Assembly (NCBI GenBank): GCA_049323655.1
Contig: JBMONO010000034.1
Coordinates: 45,354-109,353, forward strand
Length of the DNA: 64,000 nucleotides
Source: Thermodesulfobacteriota bacterium
GTDB lineage: Bacteria; Desulfobacterota; Desulfobulbia; Desulfobulbales; SURF-16
Direction of reading: 5' to 3'
Shown: piece after piece, positions 34,281 through 59,257 of the stretch
Numbering within the stretch: the stretch's first letter is position 1
Layout of the letters: every line of letters begins with the position of its first letter
The notes under the pieces: generated by a model
Told to the model about the DNA's origin: nothing
The model's database searches: none
The model's input: only the letters and a program-made list of their open reading frames with translations
Translations under genes and position numbers: made by a program

Positions 34281-34291
34281 GAACCATGTTT

Positions 34292-34410: not shown

Positions 34411-34477
34411 ATTTTTTGTCGCAACCATCAGTGATGGGCATCGACTGCCCGGATTATCACCCTGTCTAAAGGAATTT

Positions 34478-35092: not shown

Positions 35093-35105
35093 TATTTTTC
35101 ACCTT

Positions 35106-35238
35106 GACAAACCCGTAATAAGTCTTTTTTGACCACAAAGTGCAGAGAAAATGCAGTGAAAATGTCTTTTATTACAATCAGTTACCTCTGTGTGCTCTGC
35201 GGTGACTGTGGTTAATTTTCACTTATTACGAGACCATC
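35106..35238. mobile_element. MITE-like element, family 1 copy D (133 bp), between convergent sua5-like and ihfB genes
   Basis: TIRs GACAAACCCGTAATAAGTC / rc GATGGTCTCGTAATAAGTG; flanks CACCTT / AACCTT; interior collinear with copy A (TACAATCAGTTA, CTGTGGTTAATTTTCA). Confidence 0.82.
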
Positions 35239-35554
35239 AACCTTTGTTAATGGCAGGCTTGGCGTCGTTCGGGTTTACACCGGCCAGCGGATCCTTGATG
35301 GATTTACTCATTGTGAAGTGAACGGTTTTCCGGGTCGATATGTGCATGACCTGGGCGGTCCGCGGGTTTTTTGTGATCCGTGATTTCCGCTCCCGGGTGC
35401 ACAAGCTGCCGAAGCCTCGAATTTCTACCCTTCTTCCCTCTTGCAGGGCCTCAGTTATGGCATCGAGGATGATATCGATCACATGGGTGACATCTTTTTT
35501 CAGATGCCCTGGGGTCTGTTCAGCTACAGAATTGATAAGGTCGCGTTTTAACAT
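35237..35554 (-). CDS. ihfB: Integration host factor beta / HU family
   Basis: GRRVEIRGFGS, RITKNPRT, VHFTMSK; position downstream of rpsA-sppA is typical of ihfB. Confidence 0.82.
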   Translation of the reverse strand: MLKRDLINSVAEQTPGHLKKDVTHVIDIILDAITEALQEGRRVEIRGFGSLCTRERKSRITKNPRTAQVMHISTRKTVHFTMSKSIKDPLAGVNPNDAKPAINKG

Positions 35555-35749
35555 ATAAAAATTCCTGGCCCAAAAATGGCTTGATAAATCAAGCTTTGTC
35601 TGTCCGGCTTTTGCTGCAAACCTGTTCGGGAACGTTAAAAAAAGTGACCTGTCGTTTGGACAGTCGCTGCGAGACCTTTTTCCTAACGTCTGTGAAGAGC
35701 CGGTCTGCAGAGTTTCAGAGCAGTAGATGACTATAAATACTATTTCGCA

Positions 35750-36673
35750 TCACGGTAAAAGGGTCCACTCATAGGAAAGGCGCGGATGTTCCATACCCGT
35801 GCGTCGCAGAATGTCGGTGAGGCCGTTTACGGCAAAAAGCTTGAAAAAAGAGAGGCGATCATTTTCCGGGTAAAGGAGGGTTGTGTTTTTCCCGGGATGA
35901 CCGGCAAGTTCGGCCGCCAGTCTGACCGCATCATTGAAATTGCCATAATCATCGATGAATCCCAGCTGCTTTGCGGTTTCTCCGGAAAAAATCCGACCGT
36001 CAGCAAACTCGCGTACCCTTTCAGGTGCAAGTTTTCTGCGGGCTGCTATATCCTCAACAAACTGTTTGTGCACCTCGTCGATCAGGCTTTGCAGGAGAAG
36101 CCGCTCATCTGAAGACAAAGCCCTGCTCGGCGATCCTATGTCTTTCATCGGGCCGCTTTTGACCACTTCATCTTTATATCCAATTTTCTGAAAGATCTCT
36201 TCAAGGTTGGGAAACTTGAGAATGACCCCCATGCTGCCAGTCAGGGTTCCCGGACTGGCAAGAATTTTCCCAGCGCCAATGGCGGCATAGTATCCACCAG
36301 AGGCTGCAACTGAACCCATCGAGGCAACGACGGGCTTGACCTTGTTTACACGGGCGATCTCGCGATAGATTTCTTGCGCCGCACCCACCGCGCCACCGGG
36401 GCTGTCAATGCGTACGACAAGGGCCTTGACTGCGGCATTTCGACTGAAACGATCGAGCTGAGCTAAAACTTCTTCAGCATCGGTGAGTACTCCTTTAAGG
36501 GGGACAATCGCAATGGGAACCGCATCGGTGTGGAAAAAATCGACACCGCTCTGCCTGGACAGGCTGGCAACAAAAAAGGTTATTCCGACCCAGAAAAAAA
36601 GTCCTATAGCTCCCAGGATAAGAAATCCGGTGAGCAATGGATGTTTCCGGCGGAATAACCTTTCTTCTGTCAT
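35750..36673 (-). CDS. sppA: Signal peptide peptidase SppA (36K type)
   Basis: RIDSPGGAVG, KPVVASMGSVAASGGYY, TGSMGV, ADGRIFSG. Confidence 0.94.
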   Translation of the reverse strand: MTEERLFRRKHPLLTGFLILGAIGLFFWVGITFFVASLSRQSGVDFFHTDAVPIAIVPLKGVLTDAEEVLAQLDRFSRNAAVKALVVRIDSPGGAVGAAQEIYREIARVNKVKPVVASMGSVAASGGYYAAIGAGKILASPGTLTGSMGVILKFPNLEEIFQKIGYKDEVVKSGPMKDIGSPSRALSSDERLLLQSLIDEVHKQFVEDIAARRKLAPERVREFADGRIFSGETAKQLGFIDDYGNFNDAVRLAAELAGHPGKNTTLLYPENDRLSFFKLFAVNGLTDILRRTGMEHPRLSYEWTLLP

Positions 36674-36700
36674 ACCTTTCAGTAAACGTCTGCGGGGTTC

Positions 36701-38434
36701 TTACTCTTCCCGACGTTCCTGATTGTTCAGCTCTTCCTTGAGCAGATCGCCCAGTGTTGACGGCCCGGATTGAGCCTGCATTTTTTTGTAATCTTCGAGC
36801 TTCATGTCATCACTGTCATCTGTCATTGCCTTGACGGAAAGCCCGATCTTGCGGTCTTTAGCAGAAACACTAATGACCTTGGTCTCGATCATATCACCGA
36901 CATTGTACATGCCAACCGGAGTGTTGATCTTGTCCTTGCTGATTTCCGAGACGTGGACTAGTCCTTCGACCCCGTCCTCAACCTCGACGAATATCCCGAA
37001 ATCAGTGACATTTGTGATTTTACCGGAAACATGGGTGCCAACCGGGTACTTTTCGATTGCCTGTTGCCAGGGATCAGGTGTCAATTGTTTGATGCCAAGA
37101 GAGAATCGCTCATTTTCCCGGTCGATTTTCAGCACCACGGCCTGAATTGTCTGCCCCTTGGAATATTTTTCAGAGGGATGCTTTATACGTTCCGTCCATG
37201 AGAGATCCGAAACATGTATCAGACCATCAATTCCCTCTTCAATGCCGATAAAAATACCGAAATCAGTGATGTTCTTGATTTTTCCTTCAATAATTGAGCC
37301 GACCGGGTAATTTTCAGTCACCAAATCCCATGGGTTGGGCTGCAACTGTTTCATTCCCAGTGAAATACGCTTGGCATCAACATCGATATTGAGGATCGAG
37401 ACATCAATGGCGTCGCCCACCGAAACGATTTTAGAGGGGTGACGGGTCTTTTTGGACCAGGACATCTCTGAAACATGAACAAGCCCCTCAACGCCTTCTT
37501 CCAATTCGGCAAAAACACCATAATCGGTAATGCTGACCACCCTGCCAACTGCTCGTGAGCCGACCGGGTACTTCTGTTCAACAGTTGACCAAGGATCAGG
37601 CTTGAGCTGCTTGACGCCGAGAGAAACTTTATCGGTTTCCTTGTCATACTTGAGGACCTTGACCTCAATCTCCTGTCCAACCTTGAAAAGCTTAGACGGA
37701 TGAGAAACCCGGCCCCAGGACAGGTCGGTGATATGACAGAGTCCGTCTAGACCGCCGAGGTCAATAAATACACCGTAGTCGGTGATATTGGTGATGGTGC
37801 CGACTACAACGGAACCTTCGGAAAGGGAAGTTCGCATCGCCTCCCGCAGCTTCTGGCGCTCCGCCTCAAGGATGGCACGGCGGGAAATGACAACATTGTT
37901 GCGTTTGCGGTTGAACTTAAGGATTTTAAATTCATATGTCTGACCAATCATGCTGTCAAGATCTTTGACCGGACGAAGATCGATCTGTGAATAGGGCAAA
38001 AAGGCCGGGACACCAATGTCGACCGAAAGACCGCCCTTAACCCGGCTCTCAATGCGTCCGCTGATGGTGCCGTCTGCCTCCTGGATGCTGGCAATATCCT
38101 CCCATACCTTAATGCCGATCGCCTTCTCGCGGGAAAGGCGCAGTCCGCCTTCAGCCTCGCGTTTTTCGACAAAGACGTCGAAAACGTCGCCGACCTTGAC
38201 TTCGATCTCTTCCCCTTCACTGCGAAATTCACTCAAGGGGATCTCACTCTCGGACTTGTCGCCGATATCTATAACCGCAAAGTTGTCGGTCAGTCCGATA
38301 ATGGTGCCCTGCACAACGTCACCGACATTGGCGACATTGAGCTGTTCGTCGTTGAAGAGCTCTGCAAAGCTCATCCCTTCCTGGATGGACGTAAAGTCAT
38401 CCTGTTGTTTGTTTTCTGTTGCGCTGTTTCCCAT
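36701..38434 (-). CDS. rpsA: 30S ribosomal protein S1
   Basis: Six S1 repeats (AFLPYSQID, NITDYGVFIDLGG, GLVHVSEMSW). Confidence 0.98.
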   Translation of the reverse strand: MGNSATENKQQDDFTSIQEGMSFAELFNDEQLNVANVGDVVQGTIIGLTDNFAVIDIGDKSESEIPLSEFRSEGEEIEVKVGDVFDVFVEKREAEGGLRLSREKAIGIKVWEDIASIQEADGTISGRIESRVKGGLSVDIGVPAFLPYSQIDLRPVKDLDSMIGQTYEFKILKFNRKRNNVVISRRAILEAERQKLREAMRTSLSEGSVVVGTITNITDYGVFIDLGGLDGLCHITDLSWGRVSHPSKLFKVGQEIEVKVLKYDKETDKVSLGVKQLKPDPWSTVEQKYPVGSRAVGRVVSITDYGVFAELEEGVEGLVHVSEMSWSKKTRHPSKIVSVGDAIDVSILNIDVDAKRISLGMKQLQPNPWDLVTENYPVGSIIEGKIKNITDFGIFIGIEEGIDGLIHVSDLSWTERIKHPSEKYSKGQTIQAVVLKIDRENERFSLGIKQLTPDPWQQAIEKYPVGTHVSGKITNVTDFGIFVEVEDGVEGLVHVSEISKDKINTPVGMYNVGDMIETKVISVSAKDRKIGLSVKAMTDDSDDMKLEDYKKMQAQSGPSTLGDLLKEELNNQERREE

Positions 38435-38642
38435 GAACCTGTTTCCTCCTTGGCCAATTTAGAAAAGATTCTTATACCAAACCGGGGGAGTGATGACAAC
38501 TGTAAATATGAGTATTTGCGAAAAACATGGAGGTTTGCAGGGCAAGATAAAAGAGCAAAGAGGATGCAGCATTCGATGATGATCCGGTGCAGCCGCAAGG
38601 AGAATGGAAAAAGAGGAAAAGAGGAGCGGAAACCCTGTAGAA

Positions 38643-39065
38643 TCAGTAAATTTTGTTGATAAAGTCCTGCAGGATGAGCTGGTGGTCAAAGACAAGAGGG
38701 GGAAGGTCGTCAAGGGAAAAGATTCGTGCTTCGGCCGCATCATCGCCGGAACGAGGAGATCCGTCGGCCCGGGCGATAAAGACCGTGCTGATGGTATGAA
38801 AGCGCGGATCACGGCCCGGCGCAGAATAGCTGTGCATTTGGCGGACAAGGGTAACGGTAAGCCCGGTCTCTTCCAATGCCTCACGTGTCGCCGCTGATTC
38901 AAGCGACTCGCCGTAATCAACAAAACCGCCGGGAAGGGCCCAGCCATGAGGGGGATTCTTTCGTCTGACGAGAACAATGCCACCGGCGATTTCAATTATA
39001 ATATCCACCGTAGGCAAGGGGTTTCGTGGGTGCTGTTTTGTAGATGAGTCAGCCATTGCCGTCAT
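38643..39065 (-). CDS. NUDIX hydrolase
   Basis: [28 protein letters not shown] Nudix box, RDPRFHT. Confidence 0.92.
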
Positions 39066-39643
39066 TAAATAAGAAGATTGCCGAGTGAATCCCAGCAATG
39101 CACAGAGGTAAGATTGTGTCTGCCGACATTCCATGGCTGGTCAAAAACAACAGGGGTGAGACCGGAGCAGGCCATCTGCAGGCAGGTTTCAACCCGGTCG
39201 TCAACAAAATATTGGATTCCCAATGCTCTGACGCAATCTGCCTTGGTATCGTGGTCACCCATGGCGATAAGGCGCATGTTGGCGCTGACATCAGTGGGCA
39301 GAACAGTTTGAAGCCATCGGATAATGGGCTCGGCGGTGGGTCGGGCGGTCACGAATGTCAAAGGAGCACGAGCGGCAAGCCGGCTGAGGACGGCAACTGC
39401 GCCGGTCATGGGCTTTAAGCCGCAGCTGATGGGGTCACACAGCAATCGGTTAAAAATGGTATCAATGATCGCCTTGTCAACAGCGAGACAATCTTCCACC
39501 TGGAAGGCAGTGATTTCTTCTGGGGCAATGGAGATTTTATGCTCTTCCGCAGCAAGACGGATAAAGGCTTCCATGGTATCGGCGACGACGCAGTCAATAT
39601 CAAAGCCGATACCATGGGCAGGAATGGTGTGGAGAAGCGTCAT
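39065..39643 (-). CDS. HAD-like hydrolase (5'(3')-nucleotidase-like)
   Basis: [23 protein letters not shown]; start 39643 inferred. Confidence 0.75.
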
Positions 39644-39723
39644 TATGTCGATCCGCGATGATGGCACGAAAAACAGGAAATTTTCAAAATACCACTTTAG
39701 ACAAGCATTCACAACCCTTCTTC

Positions 39724-39752
39724 TTGACAAACGATGGCAAGAGCGGCATAGT
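39724..39752 (+). promoter_or_regulatory. Putative sigma70 promoter for the nitronate-monooxygenase-family gene
   Basis: TTGACA-17 nt-CATAGT, 61 nt before the ATG. Confidence 0.45.
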
Positions 39753-39813
39753 CGCATATGTTTTCCATCGGCTGCAATTTTTTTATTCGGTTTGACGATA
39801 ATAAACGACACTC

Positions 39814-40779
39814 ATGAAACTGCCACCCCTGACCATAGGCCCCTTTACCGCATCCGTCCCGCTTATCCAGGGAGGAATGTCGATCCGCGTCTCTACCTCG
39901 GCCCTTTCCGCTCCGGTGGCCGAGTGCGGTGGTATCGGCACCATCGGCGGCTCCGCCCTGCCGGTGGAGGAGCTGCAGGCAGACATCCGCAAGGCCAAAA
40001 GCATGACAAAAGGCATCATTGCGGTAAACATCATGTTTGCCATGAAGAATTTTTACAATCTGGTAATGGGCTCCATCGAGGCCGGGGTTGACATGATCAT
40101 CACTGGTGCTGGATTCTCCAGGGATATCTTTAAAATCGGCCGGGACACCAACACACCCATTGTCAGTATCGTCTCCTCCGCCGCTTTTGCCAAGCTGGCT
40201 GAAAAACTCGGCGCCGCGGCAATCATTGTTGAGGCAAAGGAGGCTGGCGGTCATCTGGGTACCGACGTCGCCCTGCGAGACCTTTTCCCGGAGATCCGCC
40301 GGGTGGTGAAAAAGGTGCCGCTTATCGCCGCCGGCGGCATCACCAACGGCTATGAAATGGCGGAGATGATGGACAAGTACGGCGCCGACGGTGTCCAGAT
40401 CGCCACCCGGTTTGTCCTCACCAAAGAATGCGCCGTTTCCGACACCTTCAAGCAAACCCTGCTCAATGCCAGCAAGGAAGATGTCGTGCTCACCACCTCG
40501 CCGGTCGGACTGCCGGGCCGGGCGATCAACACCCCTTTTGTTCAGCGGCTGGCCCGGGGAGAGTCCCCGAAGGTCAAGGAGTGCCTCTATAAATGTCTGA
40601 AAAAATGTGATCATCATTATTGTATCAGCGACCGACTGATGCGGGCACATGACGGCGACTATGAAGAGGGGCTTTTCTTCACCGGTGAAAATGTTTATAA
40701 GATGAAGGATATCCTGACCGTAAAAGAGGTTTTCGAGCAGTTTGTCTCCCAGGCAGAATCCGTCTACAAAGAAGGGTGA
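39814..40779 (+). CDS. Nitronate monooxygenase / FabK-like FMN oxidoreductase
   Basis: PLIQGGM, EAGGHLG, IAAGGI, GVQIATRF, SPVGLPGRA. Confidence 0.88.
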   Translation: MKLPPLTIGPFTASVPLIQGGMSIRVSTSALSAPVAECGGIGTIGGSALPVEELQADIRKAKSMTKGIIAVNIMFAMKNFYNLVMGSIEAGVDMIITGAGFSRDIFKIGRDTNTPIVSIVSSAAFAKLAEKLGAAAIIVEAKEAGGHLGTDVALRDLFPEIRRVVKKVPLIAAGGITNGYEMAEMMDKYGADGVQIATRFVLTKECAVSDTFKQTLLNASKEDVVLTTSPVGLPGRAINTPFVQRLARGESPKVKECLYKCLKKCDHHYCISDRLMRAHDGDYEEGLFFTGENVYKMKDILTVKEVFEQFVSQAESVYKEG

Positions 40780-47123: not shown

Positions 47124-50100
47124 TCAGATCACCAGGGCGACCGGCAGCCCCGTCTCCGCGCCCCGATCACGGCTGTCCCAGAGCAGGCAGCCCTTGCGGA
47201 TACACTCGCGATTATGCGGGTACTGGTTGCAGTGGAGAGTATCTGCGGCAACCAGTGTAACCGGCAGCAGGTCATGCGAGAGGCGGCCGGCCTCCTGCAG
47301 GGCGATGACGCTTTCCCGCTGACAGCAGCGACCGGCCCGGATTGCGGCTATTTTTTCGAGAACCTGGGCCGTGGCCTGCTGGGCCTGCTGCCGTTTGCCC
47401 GGGGTGAGCGGGGTCGCCTCGAGAATGACGGAAAAGGCGATCCCCACTCCGAGGGCGGCGCCACAACCGCCCCAGAAACCGCAGACTCCGCCCGGCACCC
47501 GGCTGCCGCGCTCAATGGCGGCGAGGATGTCTTTTTTTCCGGCCTTGCCGCCCCGGGCCCGGTAGGCGGAGAGGATGACGCCGGGGATGATGGCATGGTG
47601 CTCCGGTCCATGCATGGAGATGGCGGACTGCGATCTGATTTTTTTCAGCAGGATGATCATGTCCTCCACCGCTGACTCGGTGCAGATCTTTTTAATAACC
47701 GCCAAGCCCTTGTCCTGATGACAGTTGTCACAGACGAAATGGCCGTGCAGGCAGACGGCGTTCGCCTCTTTCTCCTCTCCGCAATAATGGCAGGTTGTGG
47801 CCCGATCCCGGGTGAAGTAGCGCAACTCGCAGCCGCAGACCATGCAGTCGCTGTGCTGGCGCCGATCGCTTGCCGCTGGCGAGGAACAGCAGGAGAGGGC
47901 GGGGCTGTTCTCCGGCGGCAGACCGCAGCAGCCTCCGCCCTGGTCGATATTGATCACTGCGCCCTCCTGGTTCAAAATAAAGACCGATTCGTCTAGTCCG
48001 GCCAGATCAGCTGCCGCGATCCGGGTTTTTTCCCCTTTGAGCAGCAGTTTGCCGCTCTCGGTGTAGACGCCGGCAAACGGCCCGCGGTAGATGACTTGGG
48101 CCGTCTCGGGCACGGCCGGCTTCCAGGCAAGGAAGGTAAGTGAATAAAAACGGGTGTTCCCAACGCTGCGATAGGGAAAACGTTTGAGGAGGCGCACTGC
48201 AACAAAGCCGGTGGCGCAAAGCATGGCCAGTAGTTCCGTTTGTCGCATGGCGCCGCCCAGACACTCACCCCGCAGTTTTTCGTCGTTTTTGATCGCAGGC
48301 GGCACCGCCTCGTCGGTGACGATGTCAGCCACCACCAGCCTACCGCCGGGGCGGAGGATACGGAAGGCCTCGTGCAGGGTGCGGCGTTTGTCCGGGCTCA
48401 GATTGATGACGCAGTTGGAGATCACCGCATCGGCAATGCTGTCCTCCAGGGGGATTTCTTCGAGAAAACCCTTGCGAAACTCGACGTTGTCAAAGCCGAG
48501 ACGTTGTGCCACCTCGCGTTGGGAAGAGCGGGCCAGGGTCAGCATGGCGTCGGTCATGTCGATGCCGTAGACCCTGCCGGCGGAGCCCACCATTGCCGCG
48601 CCCTGAAAGCACTCGACCCCGCTGCCGCTGCCAAGATCAACCAGGGTTTCGCCCTGGGAGAGGAAGGCGTCCCGGACCGGGCTGCCGCAGCCATAGGAGC
48701 GCTGGCGGGACACCGCCGGAATGAAATCCTCCTCCTGCTGGCGGTCGGCAAAGGGGTTGACGATTTCCGCATTGGCCTCCTGGGCGGCCCGTCCGTAAAA
48801 TTCCCGTACCGTGGCATGACCCCGGTCGTCCCCGAGGGAGACGACGCAGTTGCAGTGGGTCAGCGCCACCGCGCCTCCCTCCGGGCAGTCATGACGGACA
48901 TCGCCCATGCGCAGCAGGATCGATCCCTCTGTCTGCGTTGAATAGCATCCGGCCTGGCGGGCAATAAGCCAGAGGGCCATGCGGTTGTAAAGCTCGACAT
49001 AGGGATCATGGCCGGTGAAGGAACCGCCGCGTAAGTAGCTGTGGTCGATATCGCCGCCGCCGATGAGAAAACGCAGGGGATTTTCCTCGTAGGCGGAGCC
49101 GGCAATGGTTGTCTGGCGCAAGTCTGCGAGCAGCGGGCTCGTGCGCCACACCTGTTCGAGTCCCTCGGTGAGAACACCACAACGCAGCGCGGGAATGGCC
49201 ACCAGGGCCGGCGAGGGGTAGATCGCCCCGTCCGGACCGACGGCCAGGGATTCCCAGCCGCTGTTGCTGAGGTCAAAGCGGGTGCCGGGAGAGGAGAATA
49301 CCTGGCTTTTCAGTGCCTCGACGTTATCTACCATGATGCCGAGGTGTTCTGCGAGTTCCAGGGCCGGTCGCAGATGGGTCCAGATTTCATCCGGCGGCAC
49401 GAACTGGTTGCTGCTGCCCTTGCCCCGGACAAAGTGCCAGAGCAGGTGGAGATTGCCGACCTCCATGTCTCCGGCAAGGGAAACGATGGCGGAGAGTTCC
49501 GCCACGTTGTGCCGGTTGACCGCCACCGACAGAGTGGGGCGGATGTGGTGGTCCCGGAGAAAGGTGAGGTTATCGAGCAGTCTGGCAAAGGTGCCGGTGC
49601 CGCGCAGGCGTTCGTGGTTCTCTTCCAGTCCGTCGAGACTGATCTGCAGATGAAGCCGCTCCCGGTCGGCGCGGGTAAAAAATGCCCCGTGCTCCCGCAG
49701 AAGCAGGCCATTGGTCAGCACCACCGTATGGCAGTGCGGATCCGCAGCCAGCAGGTCACAAAGGACATCGGAAAAGTGCGGGTAGATAAAGGGCTCGCCG
49801 CCGGTAAAATAAAAGATGGTGCAGCCCAGCTCTCGCGCCTCTGCCATGGCGCGGCGCAGATCGACCTCGGGCAGGGCAGCCGGCGAGGCCGGAGAGGCGC
49901 TGAACAGGCAGTGGCGGCAGGCCAGATTGCAGGCGTCGGTAAGATGGAACCAGCATTCTTTCAGGCGGGTGAGTGAGAGCACCTGGCCGCGGCCGGCGTA
50001 TGGCGGGGTCGGCTCCCGTTCGGTCAGGGCGCGGAGGCGGGCCAGGTGCAGTGTCTGCATCTCCCCTGGTCGGGTTTGATTGGAGAGCAAGGAGTCGGTT

Positions 50101-50204
50101 TGGCCATCGGCGACAAACCAGTCCGGAATGTCGGGGGCAACATAGATGGCGTAACCGTCAAACTCGAATCTTTTCCAGTGCGGTGAGGATTTCGTCGTAT
50201 TCAT
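47124..50204 (-). CDS. Fusion: radical SAM + degenerate SPASM + ArsM-type As(III) methyltransferase + Cys-rich DUF5714-like domain
   Basis: CNLACRHC (49908-49931), FTGGEP; YGCGSP, DLGSGSG, GIDMT, ISNCVINL, GECLGGA; C-terminal CMVCG/CHYCG/CDNCH, HGPEHH, CGFWGGCG, RCCQRE. Confidence 0.82.
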   Translation of the reverse strand: MNTTKSSPHWKRFEFDGYAIYVAPDIPDWFVADGQTDSLLSNQTRPGEMQTLHLARLRALTEREPTPPYAGRGQVLSLTRLKECWFHLTDACNLACRHCLFSASPASPAALPEVDLRRAMAEARELGCTIFYFTGGEPFIYPHFSDVLCDLLAADPHCHTVVLTNGLLLREHGAFFTRADRERLHLQISLDGLEENHERLRGTGTFARLLDNLTFLRDHHIRPTLSVAVNRHNVAELSAIVSLAGDMEVGNLHLLWHFVRGKGSSNQFVPPDEIWTHLRPALELAEHLGIMVDNVEALKSQVFSSPGTRFDLSNSGWESLAVGPDGAIYPSPALVAIPALRCGVLTEGLEQVWRTSPLLADLRQTTIAGSAYEENPLRFLIGGGDIDHSYLRGGSFTGHDPYVELYNRMALWLIARQAGCYSTQTEGSILLRMGDVRHDCPEGGAVALTHCNCVVSLGDDRGHATVREFYGRAAQEANAEIVNPFADRQQEEDFIPAVSRQRSYGCGSPVRDAFLSQGETLVDLGSGSGVECFQGAAMVGSAGRVYGIDMTDAMLTLARSSQREVAQRLGFDNVEFRKGFLEEIPLEDSIADAVISNCVINLSPDKRRTLHEAFRILRPGGRLVVADIVTDEAVPPAIKNDEKLRGECLGGAMRQTELLAMLCATGFVAVRLLKRFPYRSVGNTRFYSLTFLAWKPAVPETAQVIYRGPFAGVYTESGKLLLKGEKTRIAAADLAGLDESVFILNQEGAVINIDQGGGCCGLPPENSPALSCCSSPAASDRRQHSDCMVCGCELRYFTRDRATTCHYCGEEKEANAVCLHGHFVCDNCHQDKGLAVIKKICTESAVEDMIILLKKIRSQSAISMHGPEHHAIIPGVILSAYRARGGKAGKKDILAAIERGSRVPGGVCGFWGGCGAALGVGIAFSVILEATPLTPGKRQQAQQATAQVLEKIAAIRAGRCCQRESVIALQEAGRLSHDLLPVTLVAADTLHCNQYPHNRECIRKGCLLWDSRDRGAETGLPVALVI

Positions 50205-50414
50205 GGCAAAATTAGGGTAAAGTGACGCGTTAATCGCGGCGGACCACGGAGGGTCGTGGCCTTTTCGCCGCATCGACCTACCCTATCATAAATGTCGTTT
50301 TCTGCAATCAGGATTGCTGTCCTGGCCCAGGAAGGCAGGATTAATTCTTCATCACAACAAAAAAATGCAATTGTGCCCCGGACCGGCGGCACCAGTGAAA
50401 ACAACGATAAGACC

Positions 50415-52243
<1,829 letters not shown>

Positions 52244-52341
52244 GCAGACTCGCACCGCGTATTTGCGCAGCAGTGCCTGCACCATGAACATCTGCACCCC
52301 ACGGGATCCGATGTTCGCATAACACGATAAGGAGTCTTCAT

Positions 52342-52671
52342 ATGACCACACTTGCCCACGCCGCCGATGCTGCGGCTCCCGCGGCCAGTCCTTTGGCCGG
52401 CTTTCTGCCCATGATCCTCATTTTTGTCGTCTTTTATTTTCTGCTCATCCGGCCCCAGCAGAAAAAGGCCAAGGCCCAGCAGGAGTTTCTCGCCAATCTG
52501 AAAAAAGGCGATGAAGTCATCACCGGTGGCGGGCTGCACGGTAAGATCACCGGCCTGACCGATACAGTGGTCACCCTGGAGGTCGCCGACAATGTTCGGG
52601 TCAAGGTGGCGCGCCAGTATATTCTCGGCGCTGCCGGCGGCAAGCAGGATCAGGCCTGCACCAGCGGATGA
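52342..52671 (+). CDS. yajC: Preprotein translocase subunit YajC
   Basis: FYFLLIRPQQKK, LKKGDEVIT.GGLHG; follows tgt. Confidence 0.96.
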   Translation: MTTLAHAADAAAPAASPLAGFLPMILIFVVFYFLLIRPQQKKAKAQQEFLANLKKGDEVITGGGLHGKITGLTDTVVTLEVADNVRVKVARQYILGAAGGKQDQACTSG

Positions 52672-52706
52672 GCCATCAATCGCTAGTTTCACCGTCGGTG
52701 AAGCAG

Positions 52707-52737
52707 AAAAAAACGAGCCCGCCATCGCATGGCGGGC
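52707..52737 (-). terminator. GC-rich hairpin whose U-tract is on the minus strand (may be bidirectional)
   Basis: A7 at 52707-52713, then GCCCGCCAT-CGC-ATGGCGGGC (perfect 9-bp stem). Confidence 0.5.
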
Positions 52738-52858
52738 GATCTGTTAAAGAAACGGTCATGATGGCGGCTGCCATGAGTCGGTTATCATGGCCTTCGGGTG
52801 TTCTCGGGCGGCCATGCCCGTTCATGTCTAACGGGAGAGTCACGCTGACCTGTTCGTT

Positions 52859-55603
52859 ATGCCGGAAAACTTTCTGACCCGCTCCTTTAATCTCGACAGC
52901 CTGCCCACCCTGCCTTCGGTGGCCATGGCGGCCATTCGTCTCATGGAGGGCGAGAATTCCACCTTTGATTCCCTGGCGGAGCTGCTGAAAAACGATCAGG
53001 TGCTTACCGGCAAGATTCTTCGCTATGCCAATTCCGTCCATGTCGGCGCCAGACGGGAAATCACCACCATTCCCCATGCCATCTCGGCGGTCGGCTTCAA
53101 TGCCTTGCGGAGCATCATCCTCTCGGTGTCGATTTTTGACAGTTTTTCCGCCGCCACTGAACAGGAGGAGGAAAAACTGGTCCGTTTCTGGCTGCATGCC
53201 ATCGGTGTCGCCGCCACTGCCGAGGCCCTGGCCCGCCGTCTCGACTTCCCTTCCCCGGATGAGGCCTATCTCTGCGGTCTGATTCATGATCTCGGCAAGC
53301 TCGTCTGCTATCAGCAGTTTCCCGACACCTTTTCCCGAATCTGCCAGGAGATCGAACAGCCCACCAGCGCTGCGGACAGCGTGTTGTCCCCCCTGGAAAC
53401 CGAGCAGCTCATCGCCGGTTTCGATCATATCGATGTCGGCAAACTGATTGGTGAACGCTACGGATTCCCCGATATCCTGACCCGCTCCATGTGGCTCCAT
53501 CACCAGCCGGTCATCGAGCCGATCGCGCCGGATGTCGACCATTTGCCTCAGCTTGTCCGTTTTGCCGATGTCCTGTGCGTCACCCATAATGTCGGCTCCA
53601 GTTACTTTCTCACCGAGCGCCCGGTCTGCCATGACTCCTTTCGGCGCGCCCTCGAATATCTGGCCCGTCTCCATGGATTGAGCGGGCCTGATCTCCAGGA
53701 TATTATGGAGAATGTCCATGCCAGGGTGGAGGATGTCTGCAAGATCCTCGGTTTCTGGAACAGAGACGAATACCGGCAGCTGCTGCGCACGGCCAATGTC
53801 AGCCTGGGCCGGATGAGCCTGCAGCTCGACGAAAACAACCAGGATCTCTTCGCCACCAACCGCATCCTCTCCGCCACCTGTCAGATGCATGAGCAACTCC
53901 ATTCCGATCTCTCGCTGCGGGAGGCTGCGGAAATTGTCTGCCGTTCGGTGTGTGCGGCCTTTGAGGTGGAGCGGGCGCTTTGTCTGATCCGTGATCCGAA
54001 AGCGCACCGTTTCATCGGCGCCATTGTTGAACGGGACGTCTTTCACCCGGTCGAGCTGCCTTCCATTCTTGCCGATATGGTCCGGCGCAAAAACCATGCG
54101 ACCCGCGACATTGAAATCGAGGCGGCAAACCGGCTGGAGCAGGCCACCCACGACCTGGTGCATGGCAGAATCGACGAATCGCGCATGTTCAGCCTGTTGT
54201 CCGGGGCAAAATTTCTCGCCACCTTTTTTGTTGCGGACCGGAATTCCCGCTGGCGCAAGGAGCCGCTGCTCGGGCAGCTGCTGATCGATTTCAGCGACGG
54301 TCCTGATTGCATTCGTAACGGGATGACCGGTCTGCGCCAGAATTTTGAGGCATTTGCCGCCGCCGTCGGCACCGCCATTGACCGCCTGCTCCTTCAGCAG
54401 GCCCTTTCCGTGCAGGCGAGAAAACTGGCAGAGGCGTCCCGGCGGATGGAACAGCAACAGCAACAGCTCTTTCATTCCCACCGGCTGGCCACGGTCGGCC
54501 ATCTTGCCTATGGCATGGCCCATGAGATCAACAATCCGCTGACCGTGGTCTCCCTCAATCTCCAGCTGCTGAAGCGGATGCTGCCGACGGATACCCTCGA
54601 ACCGGGCAAAAGGCTGGAAATAATCTCCGATCAGGTGGAGCGGATTGCCGGAGTGGTTAATAATCTGATGGCCTTTGCCAAACCGACCGAACCGAAATTC
54701 GGCCCGACCGAGGTAGCGGACGTCGTGAAAAAGGCGTTGCGGCTGATGGAGAACCGCGGCGCCTTGGCCAGCATCACGGTGGACAACCAGCTCTCCGGCA
54801 AACTACCGCAGGTCATGGTCGATTCCCAGCAGATCGAGCAGGTCTTTCTTAATCTGTTCATCAACAGTTGCCAGGCCATGCCGCAGGGCGGCAGGCTGAC
54901 CATCTCCGCCTTTGCCGCCAGCGAGCATATCGATGTTTTTGTCCGTGACAGCGGCCATGGCATTGCCGCGCAGGATCTGACCAAAATCTTTGATCCCTTT
55001 TTCACGACCCGAATGGAAGGGGAGGGATCCGGACTCGGCCTGGCGGTCTCTCACACTATCATGGAGCACAACAAAGGCGCCCTCCAGGTGGAAAGTGAGC
55101 CTGGCCAGGGCACGACTTTTATCGTCCGTTTGCCCCTAGATAAGAGCGACCGCCTACGCGAGATGAAAAAAATTCTCCAGACCAGGAAAAAAGAGGACGC
55201 GGCCAAGGCGGGCGAAGGACGGCATCGGATTCTGGTGGTGGATGACGAAGAATCGCTCAATTCCGTGGTGCAGGAAACCTTGCGGGCCGCCGGCTACAGT
55301 GTTGACGGCGCCTATGACGGAGTGGAAGGCCTGGAAAAGCTGCGACAGGACAAATATGATGTCGTCCTGCTTGATCTGCGCATGCCGCGTAAGGACGGGC
55401 TGGCGGTGCTCAAATTCATCAAACAGGAATATCCGAACATCGCCGTAATCATCATTACAGGCCATGCCTCTATGGCCGAGATTCAGGAAACTGCAGCCAA
55501 GGGGGCCTTTGCCTGCCTGAAAAAGCCCTTTCTCCTCGATCGGCTGCTTGACACCATTGCCCGGGCCATCAAGGGCAGGGAAGGCCGGGCGGCGGCATCG
55601 TGA
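52859..55603 (+). CDS. Hybrid sensor: HDOD domain + histidine kinase + receiver
   Basis: HDOD (LPTLP, D..LTGKILRYANS, GLIHDLGK); H-box AHEINNPL, N-box QVFLNLFINS, DSGHGI, FDPFFTT, GSGLGL; receiver VVDDE, LLDLRMP, KP. Confidence 0.9.
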   Translation: MPENFLTRSFNLDSLPTLPSVAMAAIRLMEGENSTFDSLAELLKNDQVLTGKILRYANSVHVGARREITTIPHAISAVGFNALRSIILSVSIFDSFSAATEQEEEKLVRFWLHAIGVAATAEALARRLDFPSPDEAYLCGLIHDLGKLVCYQQFPDTFSRICQEIEQPTSAADSVLSPLETEQLIAGFDHIDVGKLIGERYGFPDILTRSMWLHHQPVIEPIAPDVDHLPQLVRFADVLCVTHNVGSSYFLTERPVCHDSFRRALEYLARLHGLSGPDLQDIMENVHARVEDVCKILGFWNRDEYRQLLRTANVSLGRMSLQLDENNQDLFATNRILSATCQMHEQLHSDLSLREAAEIVCRSVCAAFEVERALCLIRDPKAHRFIGAIVERDVFHPVELPSILADMVRRKNHATRDIEIEAANRLEQATHDLVHGRIDESRMFSLLSGAKFLATFFVADRNSRWRKEPLLGQLLIDFSDGPDCIRNGMTGLRQNFEAFAAAVGTAIDRLLLQQALSVQARKLAEASRRMEQQQQQLFHSHRLATVGHLAYGMAHEINNPLTVVSLNLQLLKRMLPTDTLEPGKRLEIISDQVERIAGVVNNLMAFAKPTEPKFGPTEVADVVKKALRLMENRGALASITVDNQLSGKLPQVMVDSQQIEQVFLNLFINSCQAMPQGGRLTISAFAASEHIDVFVRDSGHGIAAQDLTKIFDPFFTTRMEGEGSGLGLAVSHTIMEHNKGALQVESEPGQGTTFIVRLPLDKSDRLREMKKILQTRKKEDAAKAGEGRHRILVVDDEESLNSVVQETLRAAGYSVDGAYDGVEGLEKLRQDKYDVVLLDLRMPRKDGLAVLKFIKQEYPNIAVIIITGHASMAEIQETAAKGAFACLKKPFLLDRLLDTIARAIKGREGRAAAS

Positions 55604-56658
55604 TGGATTCCCGCCTGCTCACCATAGACGATCTGGTCCGCCTCACCGGGCTTGAGGAGAGTCTGCTGCGCTATTACGAATCCGAATACGGCGACGCGTT
55701 GCCCGAAAAAATTCTCCAGGGCGGGGTACTCTATTTTGCCCCGGCCAGCGTTACCGCCTTTGCCGCTATCCATGCCCGCAACGACACCGGCGCCTTGCCT
55801 CAGCCGGTCGCCGCCTCCCGCGCCCGGGTCATTGCTGTTACCTCCGGCAAGGGAGGGGTGGGAAAAACCAACCTGGCCCTTAACCTGGCGGTGGAATGGC
55901 AGCGGCTGGGAAAAATGACGGTGGTGCTCGACGGCGACATGGGGCTCGCCAACATCCACCTGCTGGCCGGCATCACCCCACGCCACTGCCTTCTCGATCT
56001 CATGCGGGGCACGGCGGAACTGGCGGACATCATCGAGGCCGGGCCGGAAGGCATCGGCATCATTGCCGGCGGCAATGGACTGCTCTCTCTGGCCGACAGT
56101 AGTCGACAGGATCGGTTGCGGGTCATCGATGCGCTGATCGAGCTGGAAAAGGCGGCCGACATCATCGTCGTCGATACCGGCGCAGGCATGGGGCGGGGCG
56201 TGCGCGATTTTCTCATGGCCGCCGATGAAATTATCTTTGTCATCACGCCCGACATCACCTCGCTGACCGATGCCTATGGTCTGCTGAAGGGGTTGCACCA
56301 GGAAAATATGCCCCGCCGCCCCCTCTATCTGGTAGTCAATATGGCTACCACTCTCAAACAGGCGGCGGATGCGGCCCGTCGTTTTGTCACCTGCGCCCGG
56401 GATTTTCTCGATCGCATCGTGATAAACAGCGGCTATATCCTCAAGGATGCCACCGTGTCGCTGGCGACGGCGCGGCGCACCCCCCATGCGATCTACCGAC
56501 CGGAGTCCCGGGTCAGCAAAAACACCCGGGCCATTGCCTGCAATCTCCTGCGCAGCGAGACAGACCGCAGTCGCGGCAGTTCCTCCTTCGGGCGCTATCT
56601 CAATCTTATTCGCGCCGCTCGGCCCGGGAGCCTGGCAACGGAGAGGAAAACGGCATGA
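55600..56658 (+). CDS. MinD/FlhG(FleN)-like ATPase with N-terminal MerR-type HTH
   Basis: LTIDDLVRLTGL..SLLRYYE HTH; TSGKGGVGKT, DGDMGLAN, VDTGAG, TPDITSLTDAY. Confidence 0.86.
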   Translation: MMDSRLLTIDDLVRLTGLEESLLRYYESEYGDALPEKILQGGVLYFAPASVTAFAAIHARNDTGALPQPVAASRARVIAVTSGKGGVGKTNLALNLAVEWQRLGKMTVVLDGDMGLANIHLLAGITPRHCLLDLMRGTAELADIIEAGPEGIGIIAGGNGLLSLADSSRQDRLRVIDALIELEKAADIIVVDTGAGMGRGVRDFLMAADEIIFVITPDITSLTDAYGLLKGLHQENMPRRPLYLVVNMATTLKQAADAARRFVTCARDFLDRIVINSGYILKDATVSLATARRTPHAIYRPESRVSKNTRAIACNLLRSETDRSRGSSSFGRYLNLIRAARPGSLATERKTA

Positions 56659-57521
56659 GCTCTTCCGGCTGGGCAGAAAAATTTGGGTTTTCCCGCAATC
56701 CCTTCAAGGACACCCTGAGCACCGATCTTTTTTACCGGACCAGACAGCACGAAGAGGCCCTGGTCAAGCTCCGCATCGGCATTGAGGACTGCCACGCCCT
56801 TATCCTGCTCAGCGGGGCCTCCGGCACCGGCAAAACCCTGCTTTCCCAGCTGGTGGTGCGTGAGTTGGGCGAGCGTTTCGCCACAGTGATTGTGCCGGTC
56901 TACCCGGAGATGGGCAAGGGAACCCTTCTTGATCGCATCCTGGCCGAGGCCGTCCCGGAGCGGCGGCAGGCGGCCAAAAGCGCCGATCAGCTCCTTCGTC
57001 AGCTGCAGGAGACGGCCTTGGCTCTTTACCAGAGCGGCAGGCGGCTGGTCATCGTCATTGACGAGGCCCATTTTCTGAAAGCCGATGCCCTCCATATCCT
57101 TCGCACCCTCTCCAACCTGGAAACAGAACAGGAAAAGCTGGTAACGGTTCTGCTTATCGCCGAAAAAGGGCTGAGTCGTCGATTGGCTCATCCCTCCTAT
57201 GCTTCCCTGCGAAGCCGCATCACCTTTGCCGTGCAGCTTGAACCCCTGCAGCAGCGGGAAACAGAACAGTTCATCAAGTATCGGCTCCTTAAATGCGGCG
57301 CCTCTCCATCCCTCCTGACCTGCGATGCCTATACTGAAGCCCATCGGCTCAGCAACGGCATACCAAGGGAGATCAACCGCCTGCTCTACAACGGTTTTCT
57401 TGAGGCCATGAGCGGCAATCACCCAGTCCTGACCGGGGCACTGATGGCGACGGCGGGCCGGAAGGCAGGTCTGTACCATGTCCCGCATGCGTCGATTGCG
57501 ACTCAGTCGGTCGCCCCGTAA
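56655..57521 (+). CDS. ExeA/GspA-family AAA+ ATPase (cytoplasmic, no peptidoglycan-binding tail)
   Basis: FGFSRNPF, GASGTGKT, IDEAH, SLRSRI, SNGIPREIN. Confidence 0.86.
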   Translation: MSSSGWAEKFGFSRNPFKDTLSTDLFYRTRQHEEALVKLRIGIEDCHALILLSGASGTGKTLLSQLVVRELGERFATVIVPVYPEMGKGTLLDRILAEAVPERRQAAKSADQLLRQLQETALALYQSGRRLVIVIDEAHFLKADALHILRTLSNLETEQEKLVTVLLIAEKGLSRRLAHPSYASLRSRITFAVQLEPLQQRETEQFIKYRLLKCGASPSLLTCDAYTEAHRLSNGIPREINRLLYNGFLEAMSGNHPVLTGALMATAGRKAGLYHVPHASIATQSVAP

Positions 57522-57654
57522 GCGCTCGGGTGAGGGCGTCACCCCGGAGGAGCTGGCGGTGCTGATCGGTGCCGAGGCGACTGCGCCAGCCGATAAAGCG
57601 GGCCAGCAATCCGGCAAACCGGTACACCAAGGTAACCTGCCGGACCGAGAGTGA
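57478..57654 (+). CDS. Putative 58-aa small protein overlapping the ExeA-like gene end
   Basis: Hand translation: MSRMRRLRLSRSPRKRSGEGVTPEELAVLIGAEATAPADKAGQQSGKPVHQGNLPDRE; purine-rich GAAGGCAGG upstream; below the ORF-track cutoff. Confidence 0.35.
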   Translation: MSRMRRLRLSRSPRKRSGEGVTPEELAVLIGAEATAPADKAGQQSGKPVHQGNLPDRE

Positions 57655-57776
57655 TTTCAGGCCGCTCGTCGTGATCAGCACAGGAATGTCATCTTGCAAA
57701 TGGCGATCCTTTCGTGGCCGAGCCGGTCCATTTTCCCTTTGAGCGGATGACTGCCGTCGCCTCGGGCTTTAGTTTA

Positions 57777-57956
57777 GAGCTTATCCACAAATAAATCTTT
57801 GATGCTCGCATCCGGCTTTTGGCCGCCTTTGCCCGTTGCTCAATCGCAAAATCTTCGCCGCAGCGCTGCTACGCCTGCGGTTTTGCTCAATCGCCCCGGT
57901 CAAATCCGTCGCAAAATCCGGCGCGATCCCTGAAAAGCTTATTTGTGGATAAGCTT
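57777..57956. mobile_element. MITE-like element, family 2 (180 bp), IS5-family-like ends containing DnaA boxes
   Basis: Perfect 17-bp TIR AGCTTATCCACAAATAA (57778-57794 / 57939-57955); TTA on both flanks; internal TTGCTCAATCGC twice. Confidence 0.8.
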
Positions 57957-58003
57957 TTAATTTTCTCGTTGTCTCTTCTTCTTTTCTTGCTGGCCCTTTC
58001 CGT

Positions 58004-59257
58004 TCAGGGGCAGGAGAGTTGAGTGCGCCGGATCAAGGTGTATGGCAGCCACTCTGCCTCCCGGTCCGGGGTCAGCACCACCCGACTGCCCGGATTGGCC
58101 TGGGACAGGGGGCGTCCCTCCGCCGTTTCCAGGGCCAGCACCCGAAACGGAGTATTGGCGATGCCACGGCCCATGTACTCGAGGGTGTCGCCCGGTATGA
58201 TGCGGTGGCGGACATCGACAAACGGTCTGGCGCCGCCGCTCAGGATCAGGGCAGCCGGACCGTAGGTCTGATCGACCTGGGCGCCGTTGTAACACATGTC
58301 ATCCGCGCCGGGCGGGCCGGCAAAAAAATTCTCAGTATAGCCGCGACTGCCGAGTTTGGCCATCTCCGCCATGAACGGCGGCGGCAGGGTGATGGCCGCC
58401 GCCGGAGCAGCCTGCAACGCCGCCCGAACATAATCGAGAGCGGCCCGATAGACGCGGACAATGCCGCCGGCGTAATAGATGCCCTTCATCCGCCCCTCGA
58501 TTTTGAGTGAATCCACCCCGGCCGCGAGCAGTTCCGGTAGACGCCTGATCAGGCAGAGATCCTTGCTGTTGAAGATATATGTGCCGCGGCCGTCCTCCTC
58601 CACCGGAAAGAACTGGCCGGTCCGCTTTTCCTCCTGGAGTTGATAGCCGTATCGGCAGGGATGGGCACAGTTGCCCTGATTGGCGTCCCGGCCGGTCAGA
58701 TAGAGGCTCAGCATGCAGCGGCCGGAGTAAGAGATGCAGAGGGCGCCGTGGACAAAGACCTCGAGTTTACAGGACAGGATTGCGCGCATTTCACGGATCT
58801 CGGCGAGTGAAAGTTCCCGGGCGAGATTGAGTCGGCTGACTCCCTGTTCCTGCCAGAAGAGGCCGCCTTCCACATTGGTGACATTGGCCTGGGTGGAGAG
58901 ATGGATCGAGAGGGTCGGCGCCACCCGGCGGGCAATGCGCAGCACCCCCGGATCGGCGATGATAAGCCCGTCCACTCCGAACCGGGCCAGCTCGCCGATG
59001 CAGGCGGCGACGCCGTCGAGATCCCGGTTGTGGGCAAAGATGTTGACCGCGGCAAAGACCCGCGCTCCTCGCTCATGAGCAAAGATGATGCCTTCCTGCA
59101 GTTCTTCGACGGAAAAATTGGCGGCATGAGCGCGCAGGCTGTAGTCCCTGGCGCCGAGATAGACGGCGTCCGCCCCGTAGGCAATGACGGTTTTCAGTTT
59201 TTCCAGGCTGCCGGCAGGGGCCAGCAGTTCACAGGGAAACGACAGGTGCTGTTCCAC
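58004..59257 (-). CDS. Peptidase U32-family Fe-S protein (TrhP-like tRNA hydroxylation factor)
   Basis: ELLAPAGS, GADAVYLG, HLSTQ, HGALCISYSGRC...CAHPCR, NSKDLC, LKIEGR; GTG start after GGAG. Confidence 0.85.
   Translation of the reverse strand: MEQHLSFPCELLAPAGSLEKLKTVIAYGADAVYLGARDYSLRAHAANFSVEELQEGIIFAHERGARVFAAVNIFAHNRDLDGVAACIGELARFGVDGLIIADPGVLRIARRVAPTLSIHLSTQANVTNVEGGLFWQEQGVSRLNLARELSLAEIREMRAILSCKLEVFVHGALCISYSGRCMLSLYLTGRDANQGNCAHPCRYGYQLQEEKRTGQFFPVEEDGRGTYIFNSKDLCLIRRLPELLAAGVDSLKIEGRMKGIYYAGGIVRVYRAALDYVRAALQAAPAAAITLPPPFMAEMAKLGSRGYTENFFAGPPGADDMCYNGAQVDQTYGPAALILSGGARPFVDVRHRIIPGDTLEYMGRGIANTPFRVLALETAEGRPLSQANPGSRVVLTPDREAEWLPYTLIRRTQLSCP

Follow-up and report, generated by a model that had tools for sequence, protein, structure and literature searches.

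A translationally coupled operon encoding a hybrid histidine kinase, a winged-helix MinD-like ATPase, an AAA+ ATPase and a small two-motif protein, conserved in Desulfobulbales-type bacteria

Inspection of open reading frames (ORFs) in a 64,000-nucleotide (nt) stretch of DNA from a Thermodesulfobacteriota bacterium (NCBI GenBank assembly GCA_049323655.1, contig JBMONO010000034.1, forward-strand positions 45,354 to 109,353; hereafter the window) identified an operon of four plus-strand genes, at 52859-55603, 55600-56658, 56655-57521 and 57478-57654. The first encodes a predicted soluble hybrid histidine kinase of 914 amino acids (aa), assigned from Pfam, 29 orthologues and its position 5' of the ATPase gene in 43 of 45 loci. 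The second encodes a MerR-type winged helix-turn-helix (wHTH) fused to an FlhG/FleN-like MinD ATPase (352 aa), and the third an ExeA/MshM-family AAA+ ATPase (AAA_22; 288 aa) that consists of the ATPase module only, both assigned using Pfam, AlphaFold2 (AF2) models and Foldseek. The fourth, identified from its ORF, a motif profile and codon usage, encodes a small two-motif protein of 58 aa that is hypothetical in annotations. The genes are translationally coupled in the order kinase, wHTH-MinD ATPase, AAA+ ATPase and small peptide, and we consider it very likely that the four form a conserved functional module. A preliminary description of this DNA had reported an operon of three genes; that trio is real, but the description missed the fourth gene at 57478-57654 and the link to uvrB described below.

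The junctions between the genes are tight. The letters at the boundary of the kinase gene and gene 2 are GCA TCG TGA TGG (GTGATG), so that gene 2 could start either at the GTG at 55600, with a 4-nt overlap and a product of 352 aa, or at the ATG at 55603, with a 1-nt overlap, the latter being the choice of gene callers in relatives. Genes 2 and 3 are joined by an ATGA overlap, with a GGAGAGG Shine-Dalgarno-like site 5' of gene 3. The operon continues past 57521: the fourth coupled gene, 57478-57654, overlaps gene 3 by 44 nt, and a GGAAGG Shine-Dalgarno-like site lies 12 nt 5' of it. No transmembrane segments were predicted in the module proteins using Kyte-Doolittle hydropathy in 19-residue windows, the highest means being 1.66 in the kinase (within the globular HDOD domain), 1.40 in gene 2 and 1.29 in gene 3, and the sequence indicates an operon that is entirely cytoplasmic and chromosomal. 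There were no Rfam matches in 52000-58500, and a scan for promoters and terminators returned counts near the shuffle expectation, with nothing weighty within the operon. The organism is uncultured; the sequence of the region was found in metagenomes only, and no RNA-seq run contains it. The three overlapping plus-strand ORFs of the preliminary description were thus present (the ATG start of gene 2 would give a 1-nt overlap), and its reading of them as soluble proteins with intact catalytic motifs agrees with the low hydropathy and with residues that are invariant among orthologues; its domain calls, an HDOD kinase with a receiver, a MerR HTH with an FlhG-like ATPase and an ExeA-like ATPase, were likewise borne out by Pfam and by structure searches.

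Pfam matches divide the kinase into an HDOD domain (residues 15-217; E 2e-49), HisKA (548-610), HATPase_c (655-761) and a receiver (791-900), with no domain assigned to the middle region, at about residues 300-530. The sequence boxes of a hybrid kinase can be located at H555, NLFINS (665), DSGHG (697), GEGSGL (721) and the phospho-acceptor D839. H555, D839, the G1 aspartate (D697) and both residues of the HD pair (H143 and D144) do not vary among 29 orthologues, and the HDOD domain is conserved to the same degree as the catalytic core. With its H-box, N, G1 and G2 boxes and receiver aspartate, the protein is by all sequence features a hybrid histidine kinase.

In the product of gene 2, a MerR_1 match at residues 8-58 (24.0 bits; cut-off 21.6) precedes a MinD/ParA P-loop domain at 75-320 (AAA_31/ParA/CbiA). 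On the DNA, the wHTH lies at about 55621-55785, the ATPase core at about 55822-56559 and a C-terminal helix, SSFGRYLNLIR, at about 56581-56616. The deviant Walker A motif SGKGGVGKT (signature K84, plus K89), the switch residues and D192 are invariant in 24 orthologues, among which the motif TGLEESLLR[FY]YESE is invariant or nearly so. The closest solved relatives are FleN (5j1j; E 5e-42) and FlhG (4rz2), and identity to FlhG and FleN is about 30-34%. An AF2 model of the protein (predicted local distance difference test, pLDDT, 84.8) matched FlhG 4rz2 (template modeling score, TM, 0.91), FleN and the FleN-FleQ AAA+ complex 7ejw in Foldseek. Residues 1-62 are modeled at a pLDDT of about 90 as helix, helix, two-stranded wing and helix (helices 9-16 and 20-29, strands 38-40 and 43-46, helix 49-62), followed by a disordered linker at 64-70 and no long coiled-coil helix. 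According to this model the N-terminus is a MerR-type winged HTH, and distant members have stronger MerR_1 matches (E<=1e-5) and retain one more helix of the MerR DNA-binding domain, "GLSxxEI". The Joint Genome Institute (JGI) pipeline labels gene 2 orthologues "flagellar biosynthesis protein FlhG". The N-terminal enhancer helix of FlhG, DQAxxLR, activates FlhF (PMC12826062); it is absent from gene 2, where residues 1-75 are MerR wHTH and linker and no DQA occurs in the sequence. The C-terminal helix (329-339, S[SA]F[GSA]RYxNLI) is conserved and amphipathic, with a hydrophobic moment of 0.47-0.80, and may, by analogy, be compatible with a membrane-targeting sequence of the MinD/FlhG type.

The N-terminal domain of gene 2 belongs to a small family, with 36 representative clusters at E<=1e-3 among 1.84 billion. 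It was fused to this type of ATPase in all nine of the full-length, unbroken matches that were read (P0005, P0270, P0273-P0275 and P0277-P0280; about 340-390 residues). The remaining matches were mostly shorter unread sequences, together with one ordinary MerR-restriction-domain protein, two spurious sequences and a few proteins with tandem copies of the domain. The tandem-copy proteins (P0262, P0265, P0268, P0286 and P0291) have an unusual repeat architecture, in which two to five copies of the MerR-like winged-helix domain are followed by a C-terminal coiled coil.

Gene 3 encodes an AAA_22 domain at residues 49-177 (Pfam; E 2.5e-21), with a conserved N-terminal FGxxxNPFxDT...RTRQHEEA motif, a Walker A motif GASGTGKT and a Walker B motif VIDEAH. 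Walker A residues G54-K60 and Walker B residues E137, A138 and H139 are invariant in 30 orthologues, and D136 is nearly so. The orthologous group is tight, with 340 sequences at E<=1e-8 among the candidates scored, and its members carry the public names "ExeA family", "GspA" and "MshM". The best curated match was the XrtA/PEP-CTERM-associated ATPase TIGR03015, at 135.5 bits, below the cut-off of 324.5. Pfam found neither a peptidoglycan-binding (PG_binding) nor a Sigma54_activat match in the 288 aa, and a sequence search of the PDB gave marginal Walker A matches only. The AF2 model (pLDDT 89.7) had as top Foldseek matches ORC2/Cdc6, TnsC of CRISPR-associated and Tn6677 transposons, MuB filaments, RuvB and RFC, so that the modeled fold is nearest to the initiator/loader branch of AAA+ proteins, whose members work on DNA.

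The small protein encoded by gene 4 is annotated as a hypothetical protein in public sources, including the window genome (P0248), and in several relatives gene callers place a 61-76-aa ORF across the end of the AAA+ gene. Two motifs define it: an N-terminal MSRMRRLRL in the window (consensus MGK[IL]SRLRL) and, 10-12 residues later, GVTPEELAVLIG (consensus GVxxEEL[AD]VLxG), after which the tail is variable and in orthologues often rich in lysine and arginine. A profile made from the first 36 residues placed the motif at or overlapping the AAA+ stop codon in 26 Desulfobulbales-type loci; five of the 26 lay outside the construction of the profile (E 4e-10 to 9e-4), and there was no match at E<1 in 1.1 Mb of unrelated flhG loci. 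Three distant loci also have the element at this position, with a longer spacer (MGPKTRLRI...GDLSMEETNILW in L126, MGKKTDLRR...GDLTHEEKRILWG in L125 and MNGRTDLRL...EVTAEEQAILWG in L129), and the gene is present in lineages whose ATPases are only about 40% identical. The codons of the conserved residues vary synonymously from locus to locus (six each for R8 and L7, four for G20 and four for L29), indicating that selection acts on the protein and not on the DNA. The protein missed earlier is probably the cognate partner of the MinD-like ATPase, judging from the analogies discussed below.

Six independent metagenome contigs (L098, L106, L108, L113, L115 and L120) encode a UvrB with an in-frame N-terminal extension of about 40 residues that comprises both gene 4 motifs. 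The extension precedes the canonical F-x-L-x-S-x-[FY]-x-P-x-GDQP start of UvrB, and the fused uvrB directly follows the AAA+ gene. In a neighbor-joining tree of gene 2 the fusion loci form a grade that contains a clade without the peptide, whereas three loci in which a separate gene 4 is followed by uvrB (L087, L088 and L109) branch outside the grade. These sequences fit, as the simplest history, one fusion of the peptide to UvrB and then one loss in the subclade L084/L100/L103/L107/L114. The fusion shows that the peptide can act as an N-terminal tag on another protein. We considered the adjacency of uvrB as proof of a repair function and rejected it: since the tree implies one fusion and a loss, and there is no uvrB near the module in the window clade, the link to UvrB is a hint of such a function and not proof.

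To survey conservation we assembled 47 non-redundant loci from single-protein look-ups, a metagenome scan seeded with the N-terminal domain of gene 2, and distant representatives found with the domain profile. Flanking genes were read individually at 17 of these loci, and the others were screened just for the module genes, thiL and uvrB. Gene 2 identity across the set ranged from 36 to 100%, the kinase gene lay directly 5' of gene 2 in 43 of 45 assessable loci, and the AAA+ gene lay 3' of it in 41 of the 42 assessed. Many full-length relatives of gene 2, at 55-94% identity, keep the N-terminal domain, and their source labels are Desulfobulbaceae, Desulfurivibrio or Thermodesulfobacteriota metagenome-assembled genomes. 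The operon is conserved in Desulfobulbales-type sulfur-cycling bacteria and in more distant relatives, and the recurrence of one gene order in 47 non-redundant loci puts the arrangement far beyond chance. An alternative scan of genome contigs with a full-length gene 2 alignment was dominated by the generic Walker A motif and was set aside; the loci that it returned, L001-L080, are ordinary flhG loci from Firmicutes, spirochaetes and others, not orthologues, and served only as the 1.1-Mb negative control.

The genomic contexts of the module are of a housekeeping kind, and it occupies at least four different ones. In the window the genes 5' of the operon encode a radical-SAM/methyltransferase/DUF5714 protein, rph, tgt and yajC, and those 3' of it a U32 peptidase, mnmA, a MiaB-like gene and cinA, with ribosomal protein S1, RNase R, SpoT and a CCA/poly(A) polymerase farther away. 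The rph-tgt-yajC context is that of the window clade; the largest group has thiL upstream and uvrB downstream, another has moeA and a PIN gene, and one distant lineage has hpf-ptsN downstream. Flagellar, pilus, type II secretion system (T2SS), MSHA and PEP-CTERM structural genes were absent beside the module at the 17 loci with flanks read and among the genes checked across the window. The preliminary description had noted no flagellar, pilus or T2SS genes beside the trio, which holds, as there are housekeeping neighbors only, and it had held that its proposal would be refuted if the trio were not conserved or lay in such loci; in our survey the trio was conserved and, at the loci whose flanks were read, no orthologue lay in an MSHA, T2SS or flagellar locus. 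The conserved order, and the lack of structural genes beside the copies whose flanks were read, indicate that the module is real and autonomous and not a detached fragment.

Two kinds of insertion were observed between genes 2 and 3, both of which remain intact. L100 (7215-7792) and L107 carry a HigB/HigA-like toxin-antitoxin pair, and L114 (about 7500-10500) carries a 3.7-kb cassette encoding a 432-aa ATPase-like protein and a TPR-rich protein. A separate observation concerns L125 (4666-13618), where genes for a 452-aa polytopic membrane protein that has no Pfam match, for a methyltransferase and for glycosyltransferases lie after the module, the sole neighborhood resembling an exopolysaccharide (EPS) locus that we observed.

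Tentatively, and largely by analogy, we favor a mechanism in which the module is an ATP- and phosphorylation-controlled DNA-binding switch, with the peptide, the AAA+ protein and the kinase as partners. Its steps are given here in decreasing order of support: the gene 2 switch, the peptide partner, the AAA+ partner and the kinase input. FlhG dimerizes with ATP and binds the membrane through a C-terminal targeting sequence (PMC12826062). In gene 2 an ATP "sandwich" dimer might replace the absent MerR coiled coil, so that two winged helices would be offered to DNA in the ATP state only, with DNA binding on with ATP and off upon hydrolysis; like MinD and FlhG, the dimer may in addition present its C-terminal helix to the membrane. 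Proteins that stimulate MinD/ParA ATPases (MinE, ParB and PomX) characteristically have an extreme N-terminus that is basic and conserved. The basic N-terminus of gene 4, MGKISRLRL, would resemble these ATPase-stimulating N-termini, suggesting that the peptide could be the cognate partner of the gene 2 ATPase, and its acidic GVxxEELAVLxG might be a docking peptide comparable to the "EIDAL" of FliM/FliY. In FliM this peptide is necessary and sufficient for binding FlhG and is also the site for CheY-P (bioRxiv 10.1101/2022.04.21.489128). Gene 2 would set the activity or assembly of gene 3, its client or partner, much as FlhG/FleN binds and inhibits the AAA+ ATPase FlrA/FleQ (PMC12826062). Finally, the HDOD kinase would sense an intracellular cue. 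As the operon encodes no classical response regulator, the input would pass through the kinase's own receiver, which might bias the protein contacts, possibly by phosphorylation-dependent competition for the peptide. The output would most likely be transcriptional or nucleoid-associated control; we lean towards DNA, given that the modeled AAA+ fold is near the DNA-bound ORC/Cdc6, TnsC and MuB and that the peptide is fused to UvrB in one clade.

A number of observations weigh against this switch, or against parts of it. In L119 there is no AAA+ gene 3' of gene 2; in L122 a gene for a DedA-like membrane protein occupies the kinase position, which in L125 is taken by a 220-aa HTH_17/MerR plus coiled-coil protein; and L084, L100, L103, L107 and L114 have the trio but lack the peptide downstream of the AAA+ gene. 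Thus none of the partners is indispensable everywhere, and the preliminary claim that the hybrid kinase controls the ATPases was not borne out beyond the conserved adjacency of the genes, L122 and L125 being loci with no adjoining kinase. The likeness of gene 3 to ORC and TnsC is of a kind common to this branch of AAA+ proteins, and ExeA ATPase structures were not among its sequence or fold matches and so offered no comparison. The acidic motif of gene 4 recalls EIDAL over about five residues, a weak likeness that serves as a lead, and the gene 4 profile misses four genuine FliM/FliY N-termini in the control flhG loci. The hydrophobic moment of the gene 2 C-terminal helix was equalled by fractions of 0.02-0.29 of shuffled sequences, a moderate distinction. 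No conserved operator was found: the 5' regions of 30 loci have no evident common motif, and at many loci thiL directly adjoins the kinase gene, which leaves hardly any DNA between them.

An alternative is that the proteins position something in the cell as ParA-like systems do, with the wHTH-MinD ATPase coating the nucleoid or membrane, the peptide tagging the cargo (the AAA+ assembly, or UvrB in the fusion clade) and triggering hydrolysis, and the kinase tuning the process. This is plausible and compatible with the DNA-binding switch, although we think it rather unlikely to be the explanation. Gene 2 is a member of the MinD/ParA family with its dimer signature intact, a partner with a basic N-terminal peptide is encoded downstream, that peptide serves as an N-terminal extension of UvrB in six loci, and type Ia ParA proteins also have an N-terminal HTH. 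Yet gene 2 is closest to FlhG/FleN and not to Soj/ParA, its MerR-type HTH, of a site-specific kind, suggests that DNA is bound at particular sequences and not as a carpet, and the fusion to UvrB is consistent with a single origin and a later disappearance from a subclade. The preliminary description had proposed a positioning module; no cargo, ParB or parS is evident, and the module itself contains no ParB/parS-like or other cargo gene.

The names of the orthologues (GspA, ExeA and MshM) point instead to the cell envelope. ATPases of the ExeA, MshM and PEP-CTERM types occur together with secretins, MSHA pili and EPS export, as do P-loop proteins related to MinD, and the present genes could be accessories of such a system that became detached from its structural genes and act in trans. 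TIGR03015 is the best curated family match of gene 3 (135.5 bits), and the distant locus L125 adjoins a polytopic membrane protein, a methyltransferase and glycosyltransferases. We nonetheless regard this as improbable: the TIGR03015 score is far under the cut-off of 324.5, no part of the four proteins is transmembrane, peptidoglycan-binding or periplasmic, the module lies among housekeeping genes that differ from lineage to lineage, and in the loci examined no secretin, pilin, GspB, Wzc or XrtA gene lies beside the module. A last account, that flhG and two-component kinase genes of ordinary kinds came to lie beside a stray AAA+ gene by detachment or chance, could draw on the JGI labeling of gene 2 orthologues as FlhG. 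Against it, 47 loci keep the order and coupling at identities as low as 36%, gene 2 lacks the FlhG-defining DQAxxLR helix and no locus has flhF (flanks read individually in 17), and the N-terminal domain family, tiny at 36 representative clusters, is fused to this ATPase in the nine full-length matches read. The synteny survey excludes this account, to which we give almost no credence.

The window contains several other features that are recorded here apart from the operon proper. At 57773-57960, between the convergent ends of gene 4 and the U32 peptidase gene, a 22-nt inverted repeat that is 91% complementary (TTTAGAGCTTATCCACAAATAA / TTATTTGTGGATAAGCTTTTAA) flanks 144 nt containing two short direct repeats. 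The element has no Rfam match, a 14-mer from it is unique to this site in the window (0 expected by chance), and each arm contains TTATCCACA, which we take to be the DnaA-box consensus. It could be an element resembling a miniature inverted-repeat transposable element, a DnaA-titrating site or a small RNA locus. On the other side of the operon, 5' of the kinase gene and after the yajC stop at 52671, is a palindrome, TTTCACCGTCGGTGAA (TTCACCGNCGGTGAA; TTCCACCGGTGGTGAA in relatives), at about 52690-52710; in the window a GC-rich hairpin comes after it, at 52717-52737. The palindrome has the same position in L081, L083 and L090-L094 and is confined to the window clade; it could be a terminator/attenuator element or a candidate operator. 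The radical-SAM gene upstream (47124-50273, minus strand) encodes a 1049-aa fusion of radical SAM, class I methyltransferase and DUF5714 that is conserved beside rph in L081 and L083. Finally, G+C, about 0.60 in the rest of the window, falls to 0.47-0.55 at 30001-40000. Genes checked in this interval encode an M20 peptidase, Sua5/YrdC, an S49 peptidase and ribosomal protein S1, and because these are housekeeping genes there is no obvious sign that the dip marks an island.

Bacteria place things in space chiefly by means of MinD/ParA ATPases and sense chiefly through two-component systems; this operon joins both. With a sequence-specific DNA-binding domain on the ATPase as well, it would show how a phosphorylation signal is turned into a nucleotide-switch decision on DNA or membrane. 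The module also gives the HDOD domain and the poorly understood soluble ATPases of the ExeA/MshM type a defined set of partners, and it includes a small protein that is missed by annotation pipelines or called "hypothetical". The UvrB fusion provides a natural experiment on what the peptide recruits. Judging from source names, the carriers are Desulfobulbales-type sulfur-cycling bacteria, which are common in sediments, sludge and groundwater. A bolder reading would see in the module a new class of regulator: an ATP-gated MerR protein, its DNA-binding domains paired by a MinD-type nucleotide sandwich dimer in place of a coiled coil, reset by a MinE-like peptide, with an ORC/TnsC-like AAA+ protein assembling on DNA, control by the HDOD kinase through competition between receiver and peptide, and the peptide as a portable tag grafted onto UvrB. 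We consider this quite unlikely; if true, it would mean that nucleotide-excision repair is recruited or distributed by a ParA/MinD-type machine in the UvrB-fusion clade.

The preliminary description knew of no system with this composition, and our searches agree. Literature searches for the combination (HDOD, MinD, MerR, ExeA, MshM, FlhG and FleN) found no description of it, and PADLOC returned no defense-system match, only weak generic P-loop and receiver matches with partial coverage (E>=7.5e-8). Because the module fails defining tests of the known families and the literature searches gave no description, we regard the module as a new wiring of known parts, not as something categorically new. 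The parts can each be set against their families. Gene 2 has the deviant Walker A motif, signature lysine and ATP-dimer fold of FlhG/FleN, but not the DQAxxLR helix or, at the 17 loci with flanks read, the flhF/flagellar neighborhood. As in MerR regulators, its N-terminal wHTH scores above the MerR_1 cut-off and has the helix-helix-wing-helix topology, whereas the coiled-coil dimerization helix and C-terminal effector-binding region of those regulators are missing and a P-loop ATPase stands in their place. With ExeA/GspA, MshM and TIGR03015, gene 3 has in common the AAA_22 core and a region with the N-terminal "FGL...PF" motif, but it scores under the TIGR03015 cut-off, has no transmembrane segment or peptidoglycan-binding domain, and at the loci examined has no ExeB, secretin, MSHA or XrtA neighbor.

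Among characterized systems, that of FlhF, FlhG and FliM/FliY is similar in the fold of the ATPase (TM 0.9 to FlhG), in a C-terminal helix that may correspond to its amphipathic one and in a short acidic partner peptide with E-[LI]-x-x-L that recalls EIDAL. It differs in that a MerR wHTH here replaces the DQAxxLR enhancer helix, and in the 47 loci (flanks read individually in 17) no flhF was seen and no fliM/fliY N-terminal motif was matched. MinD-MinE and ParA-ParB/PomZ-PomX likewise combine a deviant Walker A ATPase with a small co-transcribed partner that has a conserved basic N-terminus and is, in our case, a likely stimulator. Here, however, the AAA+ gene lies between those of the ATPase and the partner, there is no MinC, ParB or parS (no ParB domain was found in the operon or its flanks), the ATPase bears a site-specific HTH, and the system as a whole is wired to a histidine kinase. 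Type Ia ParA proteins such as P1 ParA and F SopA have the same order of an N-terminal HTH and a Walker-type ATPase, and their binding to operator DNA depends on nucleotide state; in the present protein the HTH is of the MerR_1 type, the ATPase is of the FlhG/MinD branch, the gene is chromosomal and not plasmid-borne, and there is no ParB or centromere. In the FleN-FleQ (FlhG-FlrA) pair of monotrichous Gammaproteobacteria, an FlhG/FleN-type MinD ATPase is also encoded with an AAA+ ATPase on which it is proposed to act, with a DNA-binding output. The AAA+ protein here is ExeA/ORC-like and not a sigma-54 enhancer-binding protein, the HTH is on the MinD-like protein and not on the AAA+ protein, the receiver is on the kinase, and no flagellar genes are nearby. 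By analogy, the module would act most like a hybrid of FleN-FleQ and MinD-MinE, with an architecture that it shares with the HTH-bearing type Ia ParA proteins.

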